DNA from: Obrimoposthia wandeli
Lineage: Eukaryota
DNA length: 64,000 bases
Assembly (NCBI GenBank): GCA_977020255.1
Contig: CDROCS010004649.1
Span: 1-64,000 of the forward strand
Direction: 5' to 3'
Shown: piece after piece, positions 3 through 63,871 of the stretch
How positions within the stretch are numbered: the stretch's first letter is position 1
Layout: every line of letters begins with the position of its first letter
Program-made: the position numbers and the translations under genes
The notes under the pieces: generated by a model
The model's input: only the letters and a program-made list of their open reading frames with translations
What the model was told of the DNA's origin: nothing
The model's database searches: none

Positions 3-1424
3 TTAGGTTTGAATCGTCATGTTGATATAGCCATAAACCACGACCCTGCCGCGATTGATATGCATAAAATGAACCACCCAGAAACAGCGCATTACTGCGA
101 GTCTGTTTGGGATATTGACCCAGTAGAAGCATGTAACGGTAGTCCTGTTGGTTTGGCGTGGTTCTCTCCTGATTGTAAACACTTTTCTAAAGCAAAAGGC
201 GCTACACCTGTTAATAAGAACATTCGTGGCTTGGCTTGGGTTGCTGTTCGTTGGGCGGCTCTAGTGCCAGTTAGAATGATTATGTTAGAAAATGTTGAAG
301 AGTTCCTAACGTGGGGCCCTGTTATTGATGGTAAGCCATGTAAAGAACGTAAAGGCGAAACATTCAAAGCTTTTGTTGCTGCTTTATCTACTGGTCTACC
401 ACTTGATCACCCTTCCATTGATGATGTTAAAGCGGCACTAGGTGATGGCTTCGATTTAGCAGCAATTCAGAAAGGGCTAGGGTATCAAGTTGAATGGAAA
501 ATCATTAAAGCCTGTGATTTTGGTGCGCCAACAATTAGAAAGCGCTTATTCCTTATTGCTCGAAATGATAACCAGCCAATTGAATGGCCCGCTTCTACGC
601 ACGGCACTGGTTTAATACCATACAAAACAGCCGCCGATATCATAGATTGGAATGTTCCAGTTCGCTCTATATTCAATCGCAAGCGCCCGCTAGCAGCGAA
701 AACAATGGCAAGAATTGCAAAAGGATTACAACGATTTGTTATTGACTCGAGCAATCCATTTATAGTACCTGGCGAATGCGTAACTCCTTTTATCACTGAA
801 CACGCTAATGGTTCAAATCAACGGAATATGTCTGCGACTGAACCATTGCGCACCATTTGCGCTCAAGTAAAAGGCGGTCATTTTGCTGTTGTCGCGGCGC
901 ATATTGCAAAACACTGCACAGGGGTTGATGGTTCAGACATTCAAGAACCATTACACACTGTTACGGCTAAAGATCACAACGCTCTGGTTACTAGTCACAT
1001 GGTTAAAATGCGAGGCACTAATATTGGCCACAGTACTGACGAACCTGTTCATACAATATCAGCCGGCGGTTTTCATATTGGTGAAATTCGCGCTTTTCTA
1101 GTTGAATATTACGGCACCGGAAATGCTCATAGAGTGGATAAACCATTACATACTGTTACCACTAAAGACCGATTTGGCTTGATTACAATCAAAGGCGAAG
1201 ACTATCAAATAGCCGATATTGGTATGCGTATGCTTGAGCCGCATGGACTGTTTGCCGCCCAAGGATTCCCTGCTGATTATGTGACCGATGTTGATACCAA
1301 AGGCAAGAAACTGAGCAAGGCAAGTCAAGTTGCTAGATGTGGGAACGCTGTTTGCCCTCCTATAGCTCAAGCTTTAGTACAAGCTAATTACAATATGAGT
1401 TCTACTGACAAGAAAGCGGCATAA
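3..1424 (+). CDS. Phage/ICE-type DNA cytosine-C5 methyltransferase, 5' end cut by the window edge
   Basis: Motif IV variant FSPDCKHFS, motif VI ENV, motif VIII RKRLF, C-terminal GNAV. The frame is open to the left edge and motif I (FxGxGG) is missing, so the gene starts upstream of the window. Confidence 0.9.
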   Translation, partial: LGLNRHVDIAINHDPAAIDMHKMNHPETAHYCESVWDIDPVEACNGSPVGLAWFSPDCKHFSKAKGATPVNKNIRGLAWVAVRWAALVPVRMIMLENVEEFLTWGPVIDGKPCKERKGETFKAFVAALSTGLPLDHPSIDDVKAALGDGFDLAAIQKGLGYQVEWKIIKACDFGAPTIRKRLFLIARNDNQPIEWPASTHGTGLIPYKTAADIIDWNVPVRSIFNRKRPLAAKTMARIAKGLQRFVIDSSNPFIVPGECVTPFITEHANGSNQRNMSATEPLRTICAQVKGGHFAVVAAHIAKHCTGVDGSDIQEPLHTVTAKDHNALVTSHMVKMRGTNIGHSTDEPVHTISAGGFHIGEIRAFLVEYYGTGNAHRVDKPLHTVTTKDRFGLITIKGEDYQIADIGMRMLEPHGLFAAQGFPADYVTDVDTKGKKLSKASQVARCGNAVCPPIAQALVQANYNMSSTDKKAA

Positions 1425-1550: not shown

Positions 1551-1805
1551 ATGAAAACGACATTTTTATTGCTAGCTGAATTTGAAAAAACAGTCATCCC
1601 TTTAGATGATATATGCGAAGAGTACTTTGGATGCAGATCACATACAGCTAAACAACATGCATCTGCAGGAACTTTGCCAGTCCCAGCATTTAGATGCGGA
1701 AAAAACAAAACTACTTGGCTAATCCATTTAACCGATCTAGCTGACATGATAGACAAAAGAAGAACAGAAGCTAAAAAAGAGTGGATTGGTCCTGCAAAGT
1801 TATGA
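1551..1805 (+). CDS. Pyocin activator PrtN-family small DNA-binding protein (putative excisionase/RDF)
   Basis: MKTTFLLLAEF...IPLDDICEEYFG...AGTLPVPAFR...WLIHLTDLADMID pattern; typical position facing the integrase. Confidence 0.8.
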   Translation: MKTTFLLLAEFEKTVIPLDDICEEYFGCRSHTAKQHASAGTLPVPAFRCGKNKTTWLIHLTDLADMIDKRRTEAKKEWIGPAKL

Positions 1806-2000
1806 GGTATATTAGCTAAGCTATGAATTAACAAAATCCTTGACTGAATGACTCAGAGCCGAAGCAGACATTTTACAACTCAATAGAACATTTTTTTTAT
1901 TCGTAATATTTATACCCGTTTTTGTTAGTCTGGTAATGAAAGCAGGTGTTTTCTATAGTCAATAAAAGAATAGTTATTAAAATAAGCAAGTTACCTAAAT

Positions 2001-2036
2001 AAAAACCGCCCGATTTTAATCAAAAGCGGGTGCTTT
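2001..2036. repeat. Imperfect palindrome, copy 1, sharing AAAAGCGGGTGCTTT with 4544-4577; probable terminator of the RloC-like gene
   Basis: aaaaaccgcccgattttaatcaaaagcgggtgcttt, ~15 nt past the stop codon. Confidence 0.7.
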
Positions 2037-2050
2037 ATAAGGGATCTAAG

Positions 2051-4363
2051 TTATAAACCAGTAATAAAACATAATGTCTCTTTAGCATAATTCTTAACTG
2101 TTTGGATTTCTAAGCCTTGAATTTGTGTATCGAACCCTTCCGCATGATGATAATTTTTAGAAAACTCATTAATTTTTTGAATTAAGTCAATTCTATTGTT
2201 TCTATCATAGAGGGGGTTTTGTTCATCTTGTTCACTTCGGATAAGCTCAATCATACTTCCTAACCATTTATCATTTGTGAATTGTTTAGGAAAACAAAAC
2301 CTTAAATATCCCTCGAGAATTGGGCGGATAGAACGAGCAATTTTAACTTTATCATCTTCATTTCCAGAAGCAACAAACTCATATAAGCTATTGTATTCTT
2401 TATGATATGAATGCATAACATAGGATTCATAACCATCTGTCATATCTATTAGTTTGCTTGATATATATTGAGAACTATCAGGATTTGAGGGGGTTGTATC
2501 GATATAATCTGAATGGATTTCAAAACACTTAGTTTCTGCAGACAAAATTGAGTGTTTTAATACATCTGACAAAAAGTATACATCGTGACTAAATATAAAC
2601 GTTTGATAGTTGTTATTAACTAATTTTTCTATTTCAACAATTGTTGCATTTCTTCTATGCACATCTAGTGATGACATAGGATCATCAAGGGCAATAATTA
2701 CGTTATCTGTATTTTTATCTTTAAATTTAGATAAGAAAAAGGCTAGAGCTAATGCAGACCTATCACCCATACTCAGAACGTTATCAAATATTTTTTGGTT
2801 ATCGTTTAATATCGATAATTCGTTACCTATAAATGTCATTACATAAATGATTCGACTAGCTCCTCTATGACCTTGGTTATCCTTTTTTAGCTCCTTAATG
2901 CGGATCATAGAGTTAAAATTTTTCAATAGTTCGTTAATTGAATCCCTAGACTTACCTATACTATCTTCTTGCTCTGTAGCTATCAGATCTCTCAAATCAG
3001 TAATTTCTTTTGTATTGGCAGACTTTTTCGATTCGAGTAGCTTTAATTCTTCTAAATTTTGTAGGCTCTCAGGTGAAAATCTTGCTTTGGATTCTTTTAG
3101 TTTATTTATTTTATTAATTATTTCTTCGATTGTATCTGACCCTAAACCAGAAACAAAAGTATCTATATACTTATTGAATTGTTCAATTTTTGCGTTGTAA
3201 ACAACAAAATTGATTGATGAAAATATTTTTTGAAAAACGTTATCAAATTTAGAAAAATTAGAATCTGATAGTAAATCTTTTTCTTTGGCTTTTATTAATG
3301 ATCTAATTTCAAAATTAAGGTCTTTGGACAATTTATCTATAATTTTAAAATCATAATTTGGTTCAACTGTTTTTATTCTATCAGACCATTCTCTAATTAT
3401 TTCTATATTTCTTTTTGTAGTATCTTCTTGCTCTTCAATTTTTACACCAATATCCATAACATCAAGTTCAAACTGACTACTAGCAAGTTCAAATTCATTA
3501 CTTGCTGTCAAATAAGCTTCATTCATAAATTCTTGATATAAATGATAGATTGGTGAAGTGGAAAGAGACTGGCCACAAAATGGGCAGTTATTAGACTCTG
3601 TTACAAGCTCCCTCCCTTCTTCGATCCAGACATTATCCTGATCTTTTTGGTTCGCTTCTATATGTTTGGAAACTTCTTCTTGTGCTTCTTTTGATAAAGA
3701 AGCAATAGTAGTAATAAAACAGCTTTTATCTAATGTAGGTTGTTCAATACTCAGTTTTTTGAGCTTATCCCTTTTTCTGAAGTGTTCAATATCTTTTATA
3801 TCTTGAAATTTTTTCTCAAATTCTGATATTTTATTTTCAACGTCATTGATTTTTTTTATTTTTCTTATTTTGGCTATTGTTTGATTTTTGAGTTGAGCTC
3901 TAATTTTTGTTGATAAGGTAGTAATATCAGACGCTAAATTTCCATTATCTAATTTTATTGAGTCAATTTTTGTTTGATGTGTTACAGAAAGCGCACCCAA
4001 TGAAAATTCATAATAGTTAGCAAGTTGTGAACTTTCAGTACCTTTAGAAGTGTATAAATTCTTTTCAATGAAAGATTGATTGAACACTTGAAATGTATAT
4101 GGGACAGATAACGATTTAAGATCAACTCTACAGTTGTCGTCGAACAAGAAATTTAAGTTAGGTTCTCCCTCTGTCTCTCTAGAGGATAATGATTTTATAG
4201 TATCTATATCATTTTCATTAATGTATTCAAAAATTTTACCTAATGTTGATTTTCCAGAACCATTTCGACCATATATAAGATTGAGTTTTTCAAAAAAACT
4301 ACCTTGGCTTCCATTGTGTTGCCATTGCTTAACATTTTCTAATTTTATTAATTTCTTAAGCAT
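2051..4363 (-). CDS. RloC-like (AAA_13) ABC-ATPase / zinc-hook / HEPN protein, putative anticodon nuclease defence gene
   Basis: Walker A GRNGSGKS, central CPFC hook within coiled coil, signature LSMGD, Walker B/D-loop LDDPMSSLD, H-loop FSHD, C-terminal RPILEGY and NEFSKNYHH (HEPN-like). Much more AT-rich than its flanks. Confidence 0.75.
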   Translation of the reverse strand: MLKKLIKLENVKQWQHNGSQGSFFEKLNLIYGRNGSGKSTLGKIFEYINENDIDTIKSLSSRETEGEPNLNFLFDDNCRVDLKSLSVPYTFQVFNQSFIEKNLYTSKGTESSQLANYYEFSLGALSVTHQTKIDSIKLDNGNLASDITTLSTKIRAQLKNQTIAKIRKIKKINDVENKISEFEKKFQDIKDIEHFRKRDKLKKLSIEQPTLDKSCFITTIASLSKEAQEEVSKHIEANQKDQDNVWIEEGRELVTESNNCPFCGQSLSTSPIYHLYQEFMNEAYLTASNEFELASSQFELDVMDIGVKIEEQEDTTKRNIEIIREWSDRIKTVEPNYDFKIIDKLSKDLNFEIRSLIKAKEKDLLSDSNFSKFDNVFQKIFSSINFVVYNAKIEQFNKYIDTFVSGLGSDTIEEIINKINKLKESKARFSPESLQNLEELKLLESKKSANTKEITDLRDLIATEQEDSIGKSRDSINELLKNFNSMIRIKELKKDNQGHRGASRIIYVMTFIGNELSILNDNQKIFDNVLSMGDRSALALAFFLSKFKDKNTDNVIIALDDPMSSLDVHRRNATIVEIEKLVNNNYQTFIFSHDVYFLSDVLKHSILSAETKCFEIHSDYIDTTPSNPDSSQYISSKLIDMTDGYESYVMHSYHKEYNSLYEFVASGNEDDKVKIARSIRPILEGYLRFCFPKQFTNDKWLGSMIELIRSEQDEQNPLYDRNNRIDLIQKINEFSKNYHHAEGFDTQIQGLEIQTVKNYAKETLCFITGL

Positions 4364-4543
4364 CAATTTATCCCTTAATTGTAAAAACTGCTAAATATTG
4401 AATCCTCGCAGGATAAAGTTTTATATATTTCCCCACAACCACAACCACAAGCCCGTGTTCTCTATTTTGTAATACACACCATTATATAGATTTCCTATAA
4501 AAAACAACTTATAGCAAAAGGTTATATGATTTATGTGACTAAT

Positions 4544-4577
4544 AAAGCACCCGCTTTTATCTAAAAGCGGGTGCTTT
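4544..4577. repeat. Perfect palindrome, copy 2 (AAAGCACCCGCTTTTA-TC-TAAAAGCGGGTGCTTT)
   Basis: 16-bp arms. The 15 bp at 4563-4577 are identical to 2022-2036. Confidence 0.75.
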
Positions 4578-4797
4578 TTTGAGTAGGGGTGAAAAGCATT
4601 AACTATCTTAAATCTAGTAACCCTATTTGGGCAATAAACCGATAAAGCCGATCTAGCTAATATGCCCGCTCCAGCCTCTTTGGAATATTTTAACCAATGA
4701 CTGGAATCGGCCAATCTCGAAAATTTCACACCACTGTTGCGTAAAACCTCGACCACTGTTCCTATTGCACAGTGGAGCTCAACTAAAAAGCATGGAA

Positions 4798-5859
4798 TTA
4801 ATTCTCATCATATTTGTCATGTAGACGACTAGGATACAATTCCGTATAGACTTGCCATAGCGTATTTATATTTCTATGCCCTGTCACTTGCGCAACTTCA
4901 TCTATCGTGTAGCCTTTCTCAAACAATCGGCTAGCGCCCTCTCGACGCAAATCATGATACTTTAAATCTAGAATGTTTAACTGATTTCTTACTTGCTGGA
5001 AGCCTGAAGACACGGATCGAGAATTATAAGGAAAGATGCATTCACTATTTCTCGGCTGGCGTTGCAATATATTCCAAGCATCGCCTAAAAGCGGCGCTAA
5101 CAAATGATTGCCCGTTTTTTTCCTAGGATCTTTTCTATCTTTTACCAGAACCGCTTTTTGCGAGACATCTACATCAACCCATTTAATTGAACAAACCTCT
5201 CCTATACGCATACATGATAATATTGAAAAATCTAATATATCAACAAAGGGGATATTCGAACTAGGGCTGGACTCCCTTTTCAACAAACCTTCCCTCAGCT
5301 TTTCAAGCTCTATAGCAGAAGGCCTTCTCGATCTTCTTTCACTTTTACCGATTAAATTGAGATCATGCAATATAGGGTAGGCATCTATCACACTTTGTTC
5401 AGTAATATCATAGCCCCAATAGGGTTTGGCAACCTTGAGAACGCTACGTATATAGCTAACATCATGGTTAATTGTTGATTTACCCGCCCCGCTTTCATTA
5501 CGTAGCTTACAATGGTTTATTACATCTCCCGGTGTTAAATCGCCAAGATAAACATTCGCTATATCACAGTCCGAGATTAAATTTAACACACCCAATTTTG
5601 TGCGTTTTAGTTGCGAACCAAAATCTTCAATATACTTTTTTATTGCATCGCCGAGTGTAATGTTTTCAGTACTACCACCAATCCCATTTTTTTCTAAATC
5701 ATATACACGGTTTTTTCCCCAAGCTACAGCAGTAGAATGCTTAGAGAATGTTCTTGATTCCCTATATACTACAGTACTTGCTTTTTTAACTCGCACATTC
5801 GTTGTATACCTAGGTGTGCCACTGACTGTTTTGCGCTTGTTTATAGTATAACTTGCCAT
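4798..5859 (-). CDS. Tyrosine recombinase/integrase resembling dusA-associated integrases
   Basis: Catalytic R (SCMRIGE), HDLRR, GHRN and Y (LWQVY); N-terminal MASYTINKRK arm-binding region. Likely start is the ATG at 5859. Confidence 0.9.
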   Translation of the reverse strand: MASYTINKRKTVSGTPRYTTNVRVKKASTVVYRESRTFSKHSTAVAWGKNRVYDLEKNGIGGSTENITLGDAIKKYIEDFGSQLKRTKLGVLNLISDCDIANVYLGDLTPGDVINHCKLRNESGAGKSTINHDVSYIRSVLKVAKPYWGYDITEQSVIDAYPILHDLNLIGKSERRSRRPSAIELEKLREGLLKRESSPSSNIPFVDILDFSILSCMRIGEVCSIKWVDVDVSQKAVLVKDRKDPRKKTGNHLLAPLLGDAWNILQRQPRNSECIFPYNSRSVSSGFQQVRNQLNILDLKYHDLRREGASRLFEKGYTIDEVAQVTGHRNINTLWQVYTELYPSRLHDKYDEN

Positions 5860-5952
5860 GATAAAATCCAAAGGGGCTACAAAATTTACGTAGCCCATTT
5901 GTAGCACCCTCAACTAAAAAAAGCCAATAATTAGCGATAAATAAGGAAGAAT

Positions 5953-6861
5953 ATGACTATATGCAAATCTCCTCTAACACCTATGAGTACTGACATTATT
6001 GATAGTTCAAGGGTTGTCGGATTGGAGACATACCCTATCACGGATTGGGATGATGCCTACGCAAATGCTAGTCATATTCCAAACGGTTTAAGTTATATTG
6101 ATAGCTGGCTTGAATCAGCCAAAACTTTTCGTGAATACATGCTTGCTAAAGGGAGGGCTCGATTGGATATTCGCTACGGTGAAAATCAGCGAAATGCTTT
6201 CGATTTGTTCATGCCGGATACTTCAAAATCATCTCCAGTAAAAGGCTTAGTTGTCTTTGTACATGGTGGGTTTTGGATGATGCTAGATAAAAGCTCTTGG
6301 TCACACTTAGCTCAAGGTAGTTTAGATGCAGGCTTCGCAGTAGCGATGCCCTCTTATACGTTATGCCCTGATATACCTATTGGCGGTATCGTTAAAGAGA
6401 TTGCAATGGCGATAGAATCTGCAGCCAAACTAGTAGCGGGCGAAATTAGATTGACAGGTCATTCAGCTGGCGGGCACTTAGTCACCAGCATGCTCTGTGA
6501 AGATAGCCCTTTAGATGTAACAGTAAAGCAGCGCATCGCCAAAACGGTTTCTATATCAGGCGTACACGATTTAAGAGCACTATTAAATACTAAAATGAAT
6601 GAGAGCCTACAGCTAGATACACAACAAGCAAATGAGCTGAGTACTGTACTTAAAACACCTTCTCATTTAGCCCCATTAACGTGTTGGGTAGGTAGTGACG
6701 AAAGACCTGAGTTTAAGCGTTTAAACCAATTGCAGGCGCAAATGTGGCAAAGCTTTGCACTGCAAACTAATTGGGTAGAAGAGAAAAACAAACATCATTT
6801 TAATGTTGTAGATGGACTAATGGATAAACAGCACCCTTTAATGCAGTCTCTGCTCGCCTAA
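5953..6861 (+). CDS. Alpha/beta hydrolase, kynurenine formamidase (KFA)-like
   Basis: DWDDAYAN start, HGGFW oxyanion motif, GHSAGG nucleophile, HHFNV. An alternative TTG start exists at 6022. Confidence 0.8.
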   Translation: MTICKSPLTPMSTDIIDSSRVVGLETYPITDWDDAYANASHIPNGLSYIDSWLESAKTFREYMLAKGRARLDIRYGENQRNAFDLFMPDTSKSSPVKGLVVFVHGGFWMMLDKSSWSHLAQGSLDAGFAVAMPSYTLCPDIPIGGIVKEIAMAIESAAKLVAGEIRLTGHSAGGHLVTSMLCEDSPLDVTVKQRIAKTVSISGVHDLRALLNTKMNESLQLDTQQANELSTVLKTPSHLAPLTCWVGSDERPEFKRLNQLQAQMWQSFALQTNWVEEKNKHHFNVVDGLMDKQHPLMQSLLA

Positions 6862-7370: not shown

Positions 7371-7397
7371 AAAGCCCGCCTAGCGGGCTTTTTTTTA
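7371..7397 (+). terminator. Rho-independent terminator
   Basis: AAAGCCCGC-CTA-GCGGGCTTT followed by a T run. Confidence 0.85.
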
Positions 7398-7398
7398 T

Positions 7399-7592
7399 GT
7401 ACAGGATGTACGGTATTAGCGGTGCCATGGATGGCAAAGAGCGTATGTACAGGATTCGCAGTTAGTTACGCTCCCGACAAAAACTAACTACTTACATCCA
7501 TGTAAGCAATTAGCGATGCCATATATGGCAAAGAGCGTATGTACAGGATTCGCAGTTAAATACGCTCCCGACAAAGACTAAATACTTACTTC
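7399..7592. repeat. Tandem 94-bp REP/MITE-like repeat (about 2 copies)
   Basis: attagcg..gccat..atggcaaagagcgtatgtacaggattcgcagtta..tacgctcccgacaaa starts at 7415 and at 7509; contains the palindrome cttacatccatgtaag. Confidence 0.85.
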
Positions 7593-61979: not shown

Positions 61980-62200
61980 TTTCGGCTGACACAAAGCGAC
62001 CATTTAAGTCAGTAGTTATCGGAATTGAAACGACATTTAACAGCCAGCAACCTAAACTTTATCATCTAAGCGCGAATCGTATCAGCCGCTCATCGTTAGT
62101 GGATGCCAATGGCAATCGGCCCGCTGCTATTTTCAGTGAAACGTTCTATTTCCTGCTCAGTAAGGTGCGCTAAAAGCTACCTAAAAATGATGCGAACCAA

Positions 62201-63055: not shown

Positions 63056-63871
63056 AAAAATGGCCGCTTCTAGCCGATTCCAGTAAACTAAACAGGTGAG
63101 TAGCCAATTCTGAAGCTACTTCACCTTTTCTGCTATATTTCAGTTTTTTCAGCAAGCTCTAGAGCATCATCTAAATCGATCCCCAAATATCTGACTGTGC
63201 TTTCTAGTTTTGTATATCCTAGTAACAATTGTACTGCTCGTAAATTTTTGGTTCGTTTATAAATCAGCGCAGCTTTTGTTCGGCGCATTGAATGAGTGCC
63301 GTAAGCAGTAGTATCCAATCCAATGCTACTAACCCAGCTTTTAACAATCCTTGAGTATTGTCTTGATGAGATATGCTTCTTCTTATTCGAACAGCTGGGG
63401 AATAAATAGTCATTTGGTTCGCGTCCTGTCAATCGAACCCAATCGATAACAGACTCTTGTGTGCGAGGCATTATTTCAAATCTAACAGGAGTTTGAGTTT
63501 TCTGTTGTAATATCATAGCCCGAGATTGAATTATCGTACCTAGAAATACATCTCTTATTTTTAAGCTAATGAAATCACAGGATCGCAATTTGCTATCAAT
63601 TGCGAGATCAAACATCGCCAATTCACGGTAGCATTGCTTAAGTTGTAACCTTATTCTGATTTCCCATATTTCTCTAAGCTTAAGCGGTTTCTTTTGCCCT
63701 ACCAATTTACCTTTGTTCCATGGTACTTTCGAAGCATTGTTGTATTGGGTCTCCATGATAGTCTCCTTTATCGTGTTATGGAGACTTTAGTATTATATTT
63801 TTCATGAAGAGCTTAAACCCTGCTTTAGCTGACTGTTACAAGAACGGAAATGACACAAAGCGGCCATTTTT
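63056..63871. repeat. Inverted repeat pair enclosing the small tyrosine recombinase gene
   Basis: AAAAATGGCCGCTT at 63056-63069 and its reverse complement at 63858-63871 (14 bp perfect), extending imperfectly to ~30 bp. Confidence 0.85.
63133..63756 (-). CDS. Small (207 aa) tyrosine recombinase, PWNKGKLVGQK family
   Basis: DSKLRSCD (R), GTHSMRRTK (HxxR), LLLGYTKLESTVRY (Y); no arm-binding domain and no IntI insertion. Confidence 0.9.
   Translation of the reverse strand: METQYNNASKVPWNKGKLVGQKKPLKLREIWEIRIRLQLKQCYRELAMFDLAIDSKLRSCDFISLKIRDVFLGTIIQSRAMILQQKTQTPVRFEIMPRTQESVIDWVRLTGREPNDYLFPSCSNKKKHISSRQYSRIVKSWVSSIGLDTTAYGTHSMRRTKAALIYKRTKNLRAVQLLLGYTKLESTVRYLGIDLDDALELAEKTEI

Follow-up and report, generated by a model that had tools for sequence, protein, structure and literature searches.

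Gene modules bounded by pdif (dif) sites, with XerC and XerD as the recombinases, are known from Acinetobacter plasmids, where C and D modules are distinguished (accessible part of PMC13141974), and prophage hotspots for defence genes have been described for P2/P4-like elements (accessible part of PMC9122126). The route of defence genes into such hotspots is mostly unexplained. Here we analysed the first 64 kb (the window) of an 82-kb bacterial contig (CDROCS010004649.1, C4649) from the 1.35-Gb assembly of Obrimoposthia wandeli (G000), which also contains other bacterial contigs. A prophage end in this window carries a gene for an RloC-like anticodon nuclease between its excisionase and integrase genes. 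A very small tyrosine recombinase of the PWNKG family probably moved this gene into the slot, as a module spanning 1861-4670 that is now predicted to be immobile. The locus offers a traceable route for the entry of a defence gene. The outer sites that bound the module have a 12-6-12 layout, in which a core of 6 bp separates a strong arm from a weaker one. The features concerned are:

1847-1872, minus strand: left boundary site with strong arm (1861-1872), core (1855-1860, GGCTCT on the minus strand) and short outer arm, from the arm matrix and the start of homology to genome G582 at 1862
1862-2035, no strand: left non-coding frame, recurring with other cargo in G000 C3914 and G582 C12
2051-4366, minus strand: RloC-like ABC-ATPase/HEPN anticodon nuclease gene, 770-771 amino acids, PF13166 (AAA_13), PADLOC PDC-S06
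4575-4669, no strand: right non-coding frame, common to G582 (77 % identity over 95 columns, E 1.4e-11)
4661-4670, plus strand: collapsed right boundary site, a strong-arm remnant fused to the linker, as aligned with the complete sites of G582 and G000 C5465
4671-4707, plus strand: linker without genes that joins two cores about 40 bp apart, with same-length homologues in C5465 (three), C1004 and G581 C205
4696-4714, plus strand: linker-end site with weak arm (4696-4707) and core CGGCCA (4708-4713), outer strong arm absent, from G581 C227
63059-63088, plus strand: site at the 3' end of the recombinase gene, strong arm, core TAGCCG, weak arm (13.7 bits)
63133-63756, minus strand: catalytic-domain-only tyrosine recombinase of the PWNKG type, 207 amino acids, PF00589
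63839-63868, minus strand: site at the 5' end of the recombinase gene, strong arm, core GTGTCA, weak arm (17.2 bits, the top score of the window)

One frame was found with different cargo in the phage and in a relaxase island, ending in both at sites of this widespread enzyme family. Contig C12 of G582 holds both flanks of the nuclease gene (about 80 % identity) around a different gene of 157 amino acids, and the homology runs from 1862 and up to 4669; on the left it amounts to 81 % over 1862-1923 and reaches about 1955 with a gap. Complete sites are present in G582 at both ends of the frame. The array neighbours there are MobC, relaxase, KAP-NTPase and HNH genes, and none of the six proteins scanned in this array matched a structural phage family. 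Within G000, the left frame (1869-2035) has an 81 % identical counterpart of 165 bp on C3914 that adjoins a PAS-MCP gene. Because the same flanks surround different genes and end at sites, we regard the flanks as a reusable frame and the sites as its ends. These comparisons support flanks that act as a portable frame with other cargo outside any phage. An earlier note on this DNA had named cargo breakpoints elsewhere in relatives as the result that would speak against sites as ends; the breakpoints in G582 fall at the sites. The left frame had no meaningful match in plasmids. On C3914, a serine resolvase gene with an early stop (L002, 843-1310) adjoins a decayed copy of the left frame. Two look-alikes on C3914 were considered as the ends of one 32-kb element and rejected, each belonging to a separate module.

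The site family was defined outside the genome of the window. The DNA flanking 26 small-recombinase homologues, all from other genomes, was searched for motifs without a seed; this yielded the arm consensus AATGTCCGCTTT, and the arm matrix was trained on those genomes. Arms of at least 10 bits occurred in 34 of 52 flanks and at 23 of the 26 loci. In G000 the arm-plus-core pattern matched 27 times and its reversed control 3 times; the corresponding counts were 23 and 0 in G578 and 35 and 1 in five relatives. In five arrays, gene modules with strong arms inside at both ends and two unlike cores alternated with short gene-less linkers, and like cores were co-oriented. Such a site was present at one of 80 loci of related phage integrases, thus the sites arrived with the cargo. 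The arm matrix places the outer sites at the nuclease gene and those of the 207-residue recombinase in the same family. This kinship had been proposed earlier from a shared string, and positions 4700-4711 are indeed the exact reverse complement of 63073-63084. A 12-bp match to the 63-kb site arose in 4.4 % of 3000 trials and therefore required outside support, which was then found in G582 and G581.

G000 contains three copies of the recombinase gene, and the homology among them ends in cores. Between the window and the C5465 copy it stops inside the TAGCCG core of the site at 63059, between the window and the C1004 copy at the GTGTCA core of 63839-63868. The copy on C5465 has a stop at codon 57 and that on C1004 is cut by the contig end. 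The recombinase in the window has kept R58, K86, H155, R158/R159 and Y190; its second catalytic histidine is mutated (H181Y), a position occupied by histidine in 26 of 26 homologues. Due to this exchange the active catalytic set (R-K-H-R-H/W-Y) is incomplete. The family is abundant: 906 plasmid records cover at least 80 % of the protein, and it was found in 24 of 190 genomes of the bacterial family. A literature search, supplements and subscription papers aside, retrieved no description of the recombinase or its sites. The subgroups given in the accessible part of a tyrosine recombinase classification (PMC8138268) include no catalytic-domain-only one, and the ESM Atlas returned generic integrase clusters and nothing more specific.

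Several further arrays of outer-type sites were observed. The recombinase itself lies in a second array of the contig (61422-66200) with sites at 61993, 63059, 63857, 65143-65204 and 66142, which also contains a broken IS4-type transposase and a truncated integrase; the linker at 65.1 kb is also present in G582 C12. Two regions of G578 (C14:122400-128500 and C1:763000-773000) hold arrays of six to eight co-oriented sites and a recombinase of 86 % identity with the histidine kept. On G000 C5465 (3400-10000), single small genes are parted by outer-type sites and linkers in a dense array that includes the recombinase copy with the stop codon.

The module at the nuclease gene measures 2.8 kb and is followed by a linker of 40 bp. 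Its left strong arm scores 13.9 bits, the fourth best of about 128,000 positions; since about two matches of at least 13 bits are expected by chance, the left boundary rests chiefly on the breakpoint in G582. The left outer arm is about 4 nt shorter than in a natural site with a related core in G582 C2. At the right boundary, about 11 bp including the core are absent between two short repeats. An ATGCC at 4663 had been taken for an intact core and was rejected after the comparison with G582 in favour of the 11-bp collapse. The linker end matches G581 C227 exactly over 26 bp (4689-4714), followed there by a strong arm that the window lacks. As judged from these alignments, all three boundary sites are damaged.

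The outer strings reported at 1847-1872 and from 4696 in the earlier note are present, and their interpretation has to be revised. Both begin with AATGACT on the plus strand, the outer arm followed by the core, and so form a direct rather than an inward-pointing pair. The site at 4696 is the far end of the linker and no cargo boundary, the true right boundary at 4661-4670 having been missed, and neither site is a full palindrome, as both are damaged. The proposal of a mobile cassette from this recombinase family is supported by the site family and the portable frame, but not with respect to present mobility: three damaged boundary sites and H181Y make this copy of the module likely immobile. 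The RloC-like cassette was apparently fixed by core loss.

Damage at every boundary site is also what one would see if the gene had arrived by ordinary illegitimate or homologous recombination, together with site remnants that were dead beforehand in an array on a chromosome, and without any action of the small recombinase on the phage. The unmatched cores, the variation of the slot in distant relatives without outer-type sites and the promiscuity of the cargo gene family agree with such an event. The foreign DNA stops, however, within a few bases of a core at both ends (1855 and 4714), at distances of only about 40 and 85 bp from the neighbouring phage genes, and a random transfer is not expected to stop at cores on both sides. 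We consider this origin quite improbable.

For delivery by the recombinase, we propose a course of events in analogy to pdif modules. The enzyme would act in trans and recombine sites with matching cores, and the module would travel paired with its linker or be swapped via a cointegrate. Module and linker would have been placed in the phage slot by a same-core exchange, either directly or via a cointegrate, and the phage integrase would play no part. Later short deletions may then have fixed the gene: about 4 bp on the left, about 11 bp on the right and the loss of the outer arm at 4714.

The recipient slot is defined by phage genes. The first 5.9 kb of the window represent the prophage end, with methyltransferase, PrtN-like excisionase, cargo and a convergent integrase:

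9-1424, plus strand: prophage C5 DNA methyltransferase, PF00145, phrog_116 (E 1.7e-84)
1551-1805, plus strand: PrtN-like excisionase, the left phage neighbour of the slot, PF11112, phrog_1300 excisionase
4798-5913, minus strand: prophage integrase, PF00589

Among the relatives listed, the distant phage L088 has overlapping stop codons of excisionase and integrase, hence no gap, and two other phages carry different inserts of 1.3-2 kb at this junction. The junction, empty in one phage and otherwise filled in two, is therefore a cargo slot. Relatives of the integrase in G580 and L037 adjoin a dusA-type (Dus) gene, in line with a dusA-associated integrase family (accessible part of PMC4482086). 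In the window, the integrase (4798-5953) adjoins an alpha/beta hydrolase gene instead, either a non-cognate insertion or a rearrangement. A contig of run X1 differs from the window at seven positions in the methyltransferase gene (1022-1256), a strain or prophage variant. One housekeeping protein (92-97 % identity) placed the host bacterium near the Osedax symbiont Rs1, among uncultured Oceanospirillaceae. The best DNA matches of the window were 12 genomes of one genus (G573-G584), which we treated as presumed congeners. The intergenic region of the AsnC and dGTPase genes contains a short repeat (7380-7455) that resembles a repetitive extragenic palindromic (REP) element; copies of 82-92 % identity occur in many genomes of the family, and also in many contigs of run X1.

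A second kind of repeat is located inside the module ends:

1909-1952, no strand: degenerate inner-type palindrome with a 16-bp spacer (6 bp in G582)
2003-2036, no strand: palindrome of the inner 14-6-14 type with spacer TAATCA, at 14 bp from the stop codon of the nuclease gene on its downstream side (34.6 bits)
4544-4577, no strand: palindrome of the inner 14-6-14 type with spacer TATCTA, located upstream of the nuclease gene at about 180 bp from its start (47.5 bits)

The identity of 15 bp noted before between the two inner sites was reproduced (AAAAGCGGGTGCTTT at 2022 and 4563, in reverse at 4544), and the geometry CCG(C/A)TT-N8-AAGCGG occurs within the window at 2010 and 4551 only. A 15-mer shared between the cargo flanks appeared in none of 3000 Markov trials, and the palindrome pattern had four strand-matches in the window versus none in 100 shuffles. 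The family with the arms AAAGCAC(A/C)CGCTTT is present in eight of the 12 genus genomes (nine with G582), in none of 178 other family genomes and with six sites in G000, at zero control matches. IMG/VR contained no exact match in two scans. When the spacer was left free between 0 and 20, its length was 6 in six of six sites. The family is tied to module ends: 8 of 16 inner sites have an inward-facing strong arm of at least 11 bits within about 150 bp, compared to a background of 3.4 %. A grouping of the inner spacers into two classes was significant in a shuffle test, yet indistinguishable from an extension of the palindrome by T...A, and was not used. In G573 (C1:1859750-1860670) and G579 (C1:2470130-2471050), a unit of 921 bp is 98 % identical between the two species; it carries a toxin-antitoxin-like pair as well as an inner palindrome, and its end lies at a CTGACCCC motif.

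The strict spacer length of 6 bp with variable sequence would suit a crossover site, and the inner palindromes could be recombined by the same enzyme or a paralogue, so that genes are swapped inside a frame that is itself moved by the outer sites. The six bases beside the inner spacer vary like the strong arm (CGCTTT 16, CGCTAT 6 and CGCTTC 4 of 34 arms), which also supports the kinship of inner and outer sites suggested earlier. Homology ends at the edge of an inner site in four comparisons (window/C3914, window/G582 on the right, two G573 loci, C1089/C3914), but the conserved arms make alignments stop at this edge under any mechanism. Further, the inner spacers are diverse (14 kinds in 17, 20 % GC) in contrast to the few core classes of the outer sites, the two spacers in the window differ, and the sites were solitary in 12 of 12 wider regions. 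A search for a dedicated enzyme found a full inner site at none of 78 scanned tyrosine recombinase loci, 44 of which came from a genus-wide PF00589 search (80 matches) and 34 from the small recombinase. Inner crossovers thus appear unlikely. A system of two tiers, in which the recombinase moves frames between islands, chromosomes and prophages, cargo is exchanged at the genus-specific 14-6-14 site, and prophages lock in anti-phage genes by core deletion, is in our view equally doubtful.

Plain bidirectional intrinsic terminators, inherited with the module ends and selected to insulate a toxic tRNase gene, are a possibility that we rate higher, though still on the doubtful side. The copy at 4544-4577 folds into a perfect hairpin flanked by an A tail and a T tail (4541-4580, -24 kcal/mol, z -8) between the integrase and the nuclease gene. 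A stop codon precedes many inner copies at a distance of 14-260 bp, an unrelated hairpin repeat occupies the same two positions at Photobacterium-type cargo homologues, and the arms show a slight covariation (16 of 500 shuffles). The copy at 2003-2036, whose position would suit termination of the nuclease gene, is no more stable in its fold than shuffled sequences, however (z -0.7 on the coding strand). Mismatches affect 14 % of the paired cells and most changes are uncompensated, and unrelated loci agree in primary sequence and in the length of the spacer. A terminator scan called neither copy, and Rfam gave no match above the gathering score. In the reading that we favour, the inner palindromes are residents of the module ends of this genus and probably serve as protein-binding accessory sites rather than crossover points; they may also insulate the toxic gene from read-through of the integrase gene. 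The accessory, crossover and terminator functions are compatible and not mutually exclusive.

The cargo gene has a GC content of 29 %, versus 37-44 % in the neighbouring genes. RloC has been described as a protein of 658-897 amino acids in which a coiled coil with a CX2C motif splits the ABC motifs, with a C-terminal Arg-X3-Glu-X36-52-His (accessible part of PMC2610378), and has been assigned to the HEPN proteins (accessible part of PMC3710099). The cargo protein resembles RloC in its size class, in ABC motifs parted by a hooked coiled coil and in the C-terminal triad. Walker A, signature, Walker B/D-loop and H-switch are located at positions 33, 531, 558 and 592 and are conserved in 40 aligned homologues. 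The zinc hook is C261-X2-C264, and the structure model is Rad50/SMC-like, with long helices and matches to Rad50/SMC proteins. The triad is formed by R681-X3-E685 and H740/H741. It differs from RloC in the distance from glutamate to histidine, 54-55 residues compared to 52-53 in most aligned homologues, hence two to three residues over the published range, and in its best library match, PADLOC PDC-S06 (E 1.5e-51). From these motifs, the cargo is predicted to be an RloC-like tRNase that agrees with the published description apart from the slightly long spacing; it likely guards the lysogen via tRNA cleavage. No cargo homologue was found in IMG/VR.

Homologues of the cargo also occur in other capture contexts, read by eye in eight loci (L112, L115, L134, L118, L119, L129, L130 and L133). 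These contexts comprise attC-like sites that flank the gene left and right, terminator-like repeats in direct orientation and, in Acinetobacter, REP-like repeats close to the 3' end of a metH-like gene.

A number of results weigh against a capture by the small recombinase. Among 16 homologous cargo loci, one had a clear full site close by and one a weak site, and other homologues are flanked by attC-like, REP-like or terminator repeats. The 8 of 16 inner sites close to a strong arm represent about three to four independent module-end types. The link between enzyme and sites is their co-location, and none of the three copies in G000 was confirmed as intact. Another arm-plus-core rule gave four matches in the window versus 0.03, and was partly circular, as it contained the cores of the window itself. 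The left core GGCTCT is unlike the right linker core TGGCCG and also unlike the left core in G582; because the cores differ, one clean same-core insertion fails to explain the present state. A close prophage without the cargo, which would fix the breakpoints on the phage side, was not found in the collections searched: 80 integrase relatives in IMG/VR were 55-67 % identical, and the nearest integrase had 67-68 % identity. The G580 contig stops short of the excisionase, and a search with the excisionase returned two loci, one of a different layout. Among the sequencing runs listed, one DNA run and no RNA run contained this DNA. No recombination event was seen, and joins across the module ends were absent among the matches listed from contigs of run X1, which is uninformative at their low depth (possibly the source sample). 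With these points included, transfer by the PWNKG-family recombinase still appears the probable origin.

The locus shares features with several known systems. As in the hotspots of P2/P4-like elements, in so far as their accessible description goes, conserved phage genes enclose a variable position that is occupied by an anti-phage gene; in the present prophage the enclosing genes are excisionase and integrase, and the insert can be traced to ends of a recombinase type. The resemblance to pdif modules, in the features that the accessible text covers, is closer: a 6-bp spacer with unlike arms on its two sides, modules whose polarity alternates, gene-less modules and site damage that fuses modules. 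By analogy, exchange would be expected between matching spacers, as pairs or through cointegrates. The candidate enzyme differs from the pdif system in being one catalytic-domain-only recombinase of 207 residues that is itself a module, the arrays occur on chromosomes, in islands and in one prophage, the bacteria being marine and of the Oceanospirillaceae type, and the module ends contain the additional 14-6-14 palindrome. The outer arms are of the 12-bp AATGTCCGCTTT type, which is unlike the dif arms, and their consensus tracks the small recombinase gene. In sequence terms, the outer-site system appears to work like pdif modules without belonging to them, for its arms are not XerC/XerD sites. 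With integrons, the locus shares arrays of accessory and defence genes tied to a tyrosine recombinase, and the cargo homologue at L112, read by eye, is an attC-type cassette. The recombinase differs from integron integrases in its score of 19 bits with TIGR02249 (IntI cut-off 265) and its length, which sets the system apart from integrons, and each module has two unlike sites of the double-stranded type. Integron attC sites have ends of the GTTRRRY/RYYYAAC type; none was seen by eye at the module boundaries. Naming the recombinase family, its site and the rule for its cores makes the system testable, and the arrays could become a source of new defence genes, as integrons have.

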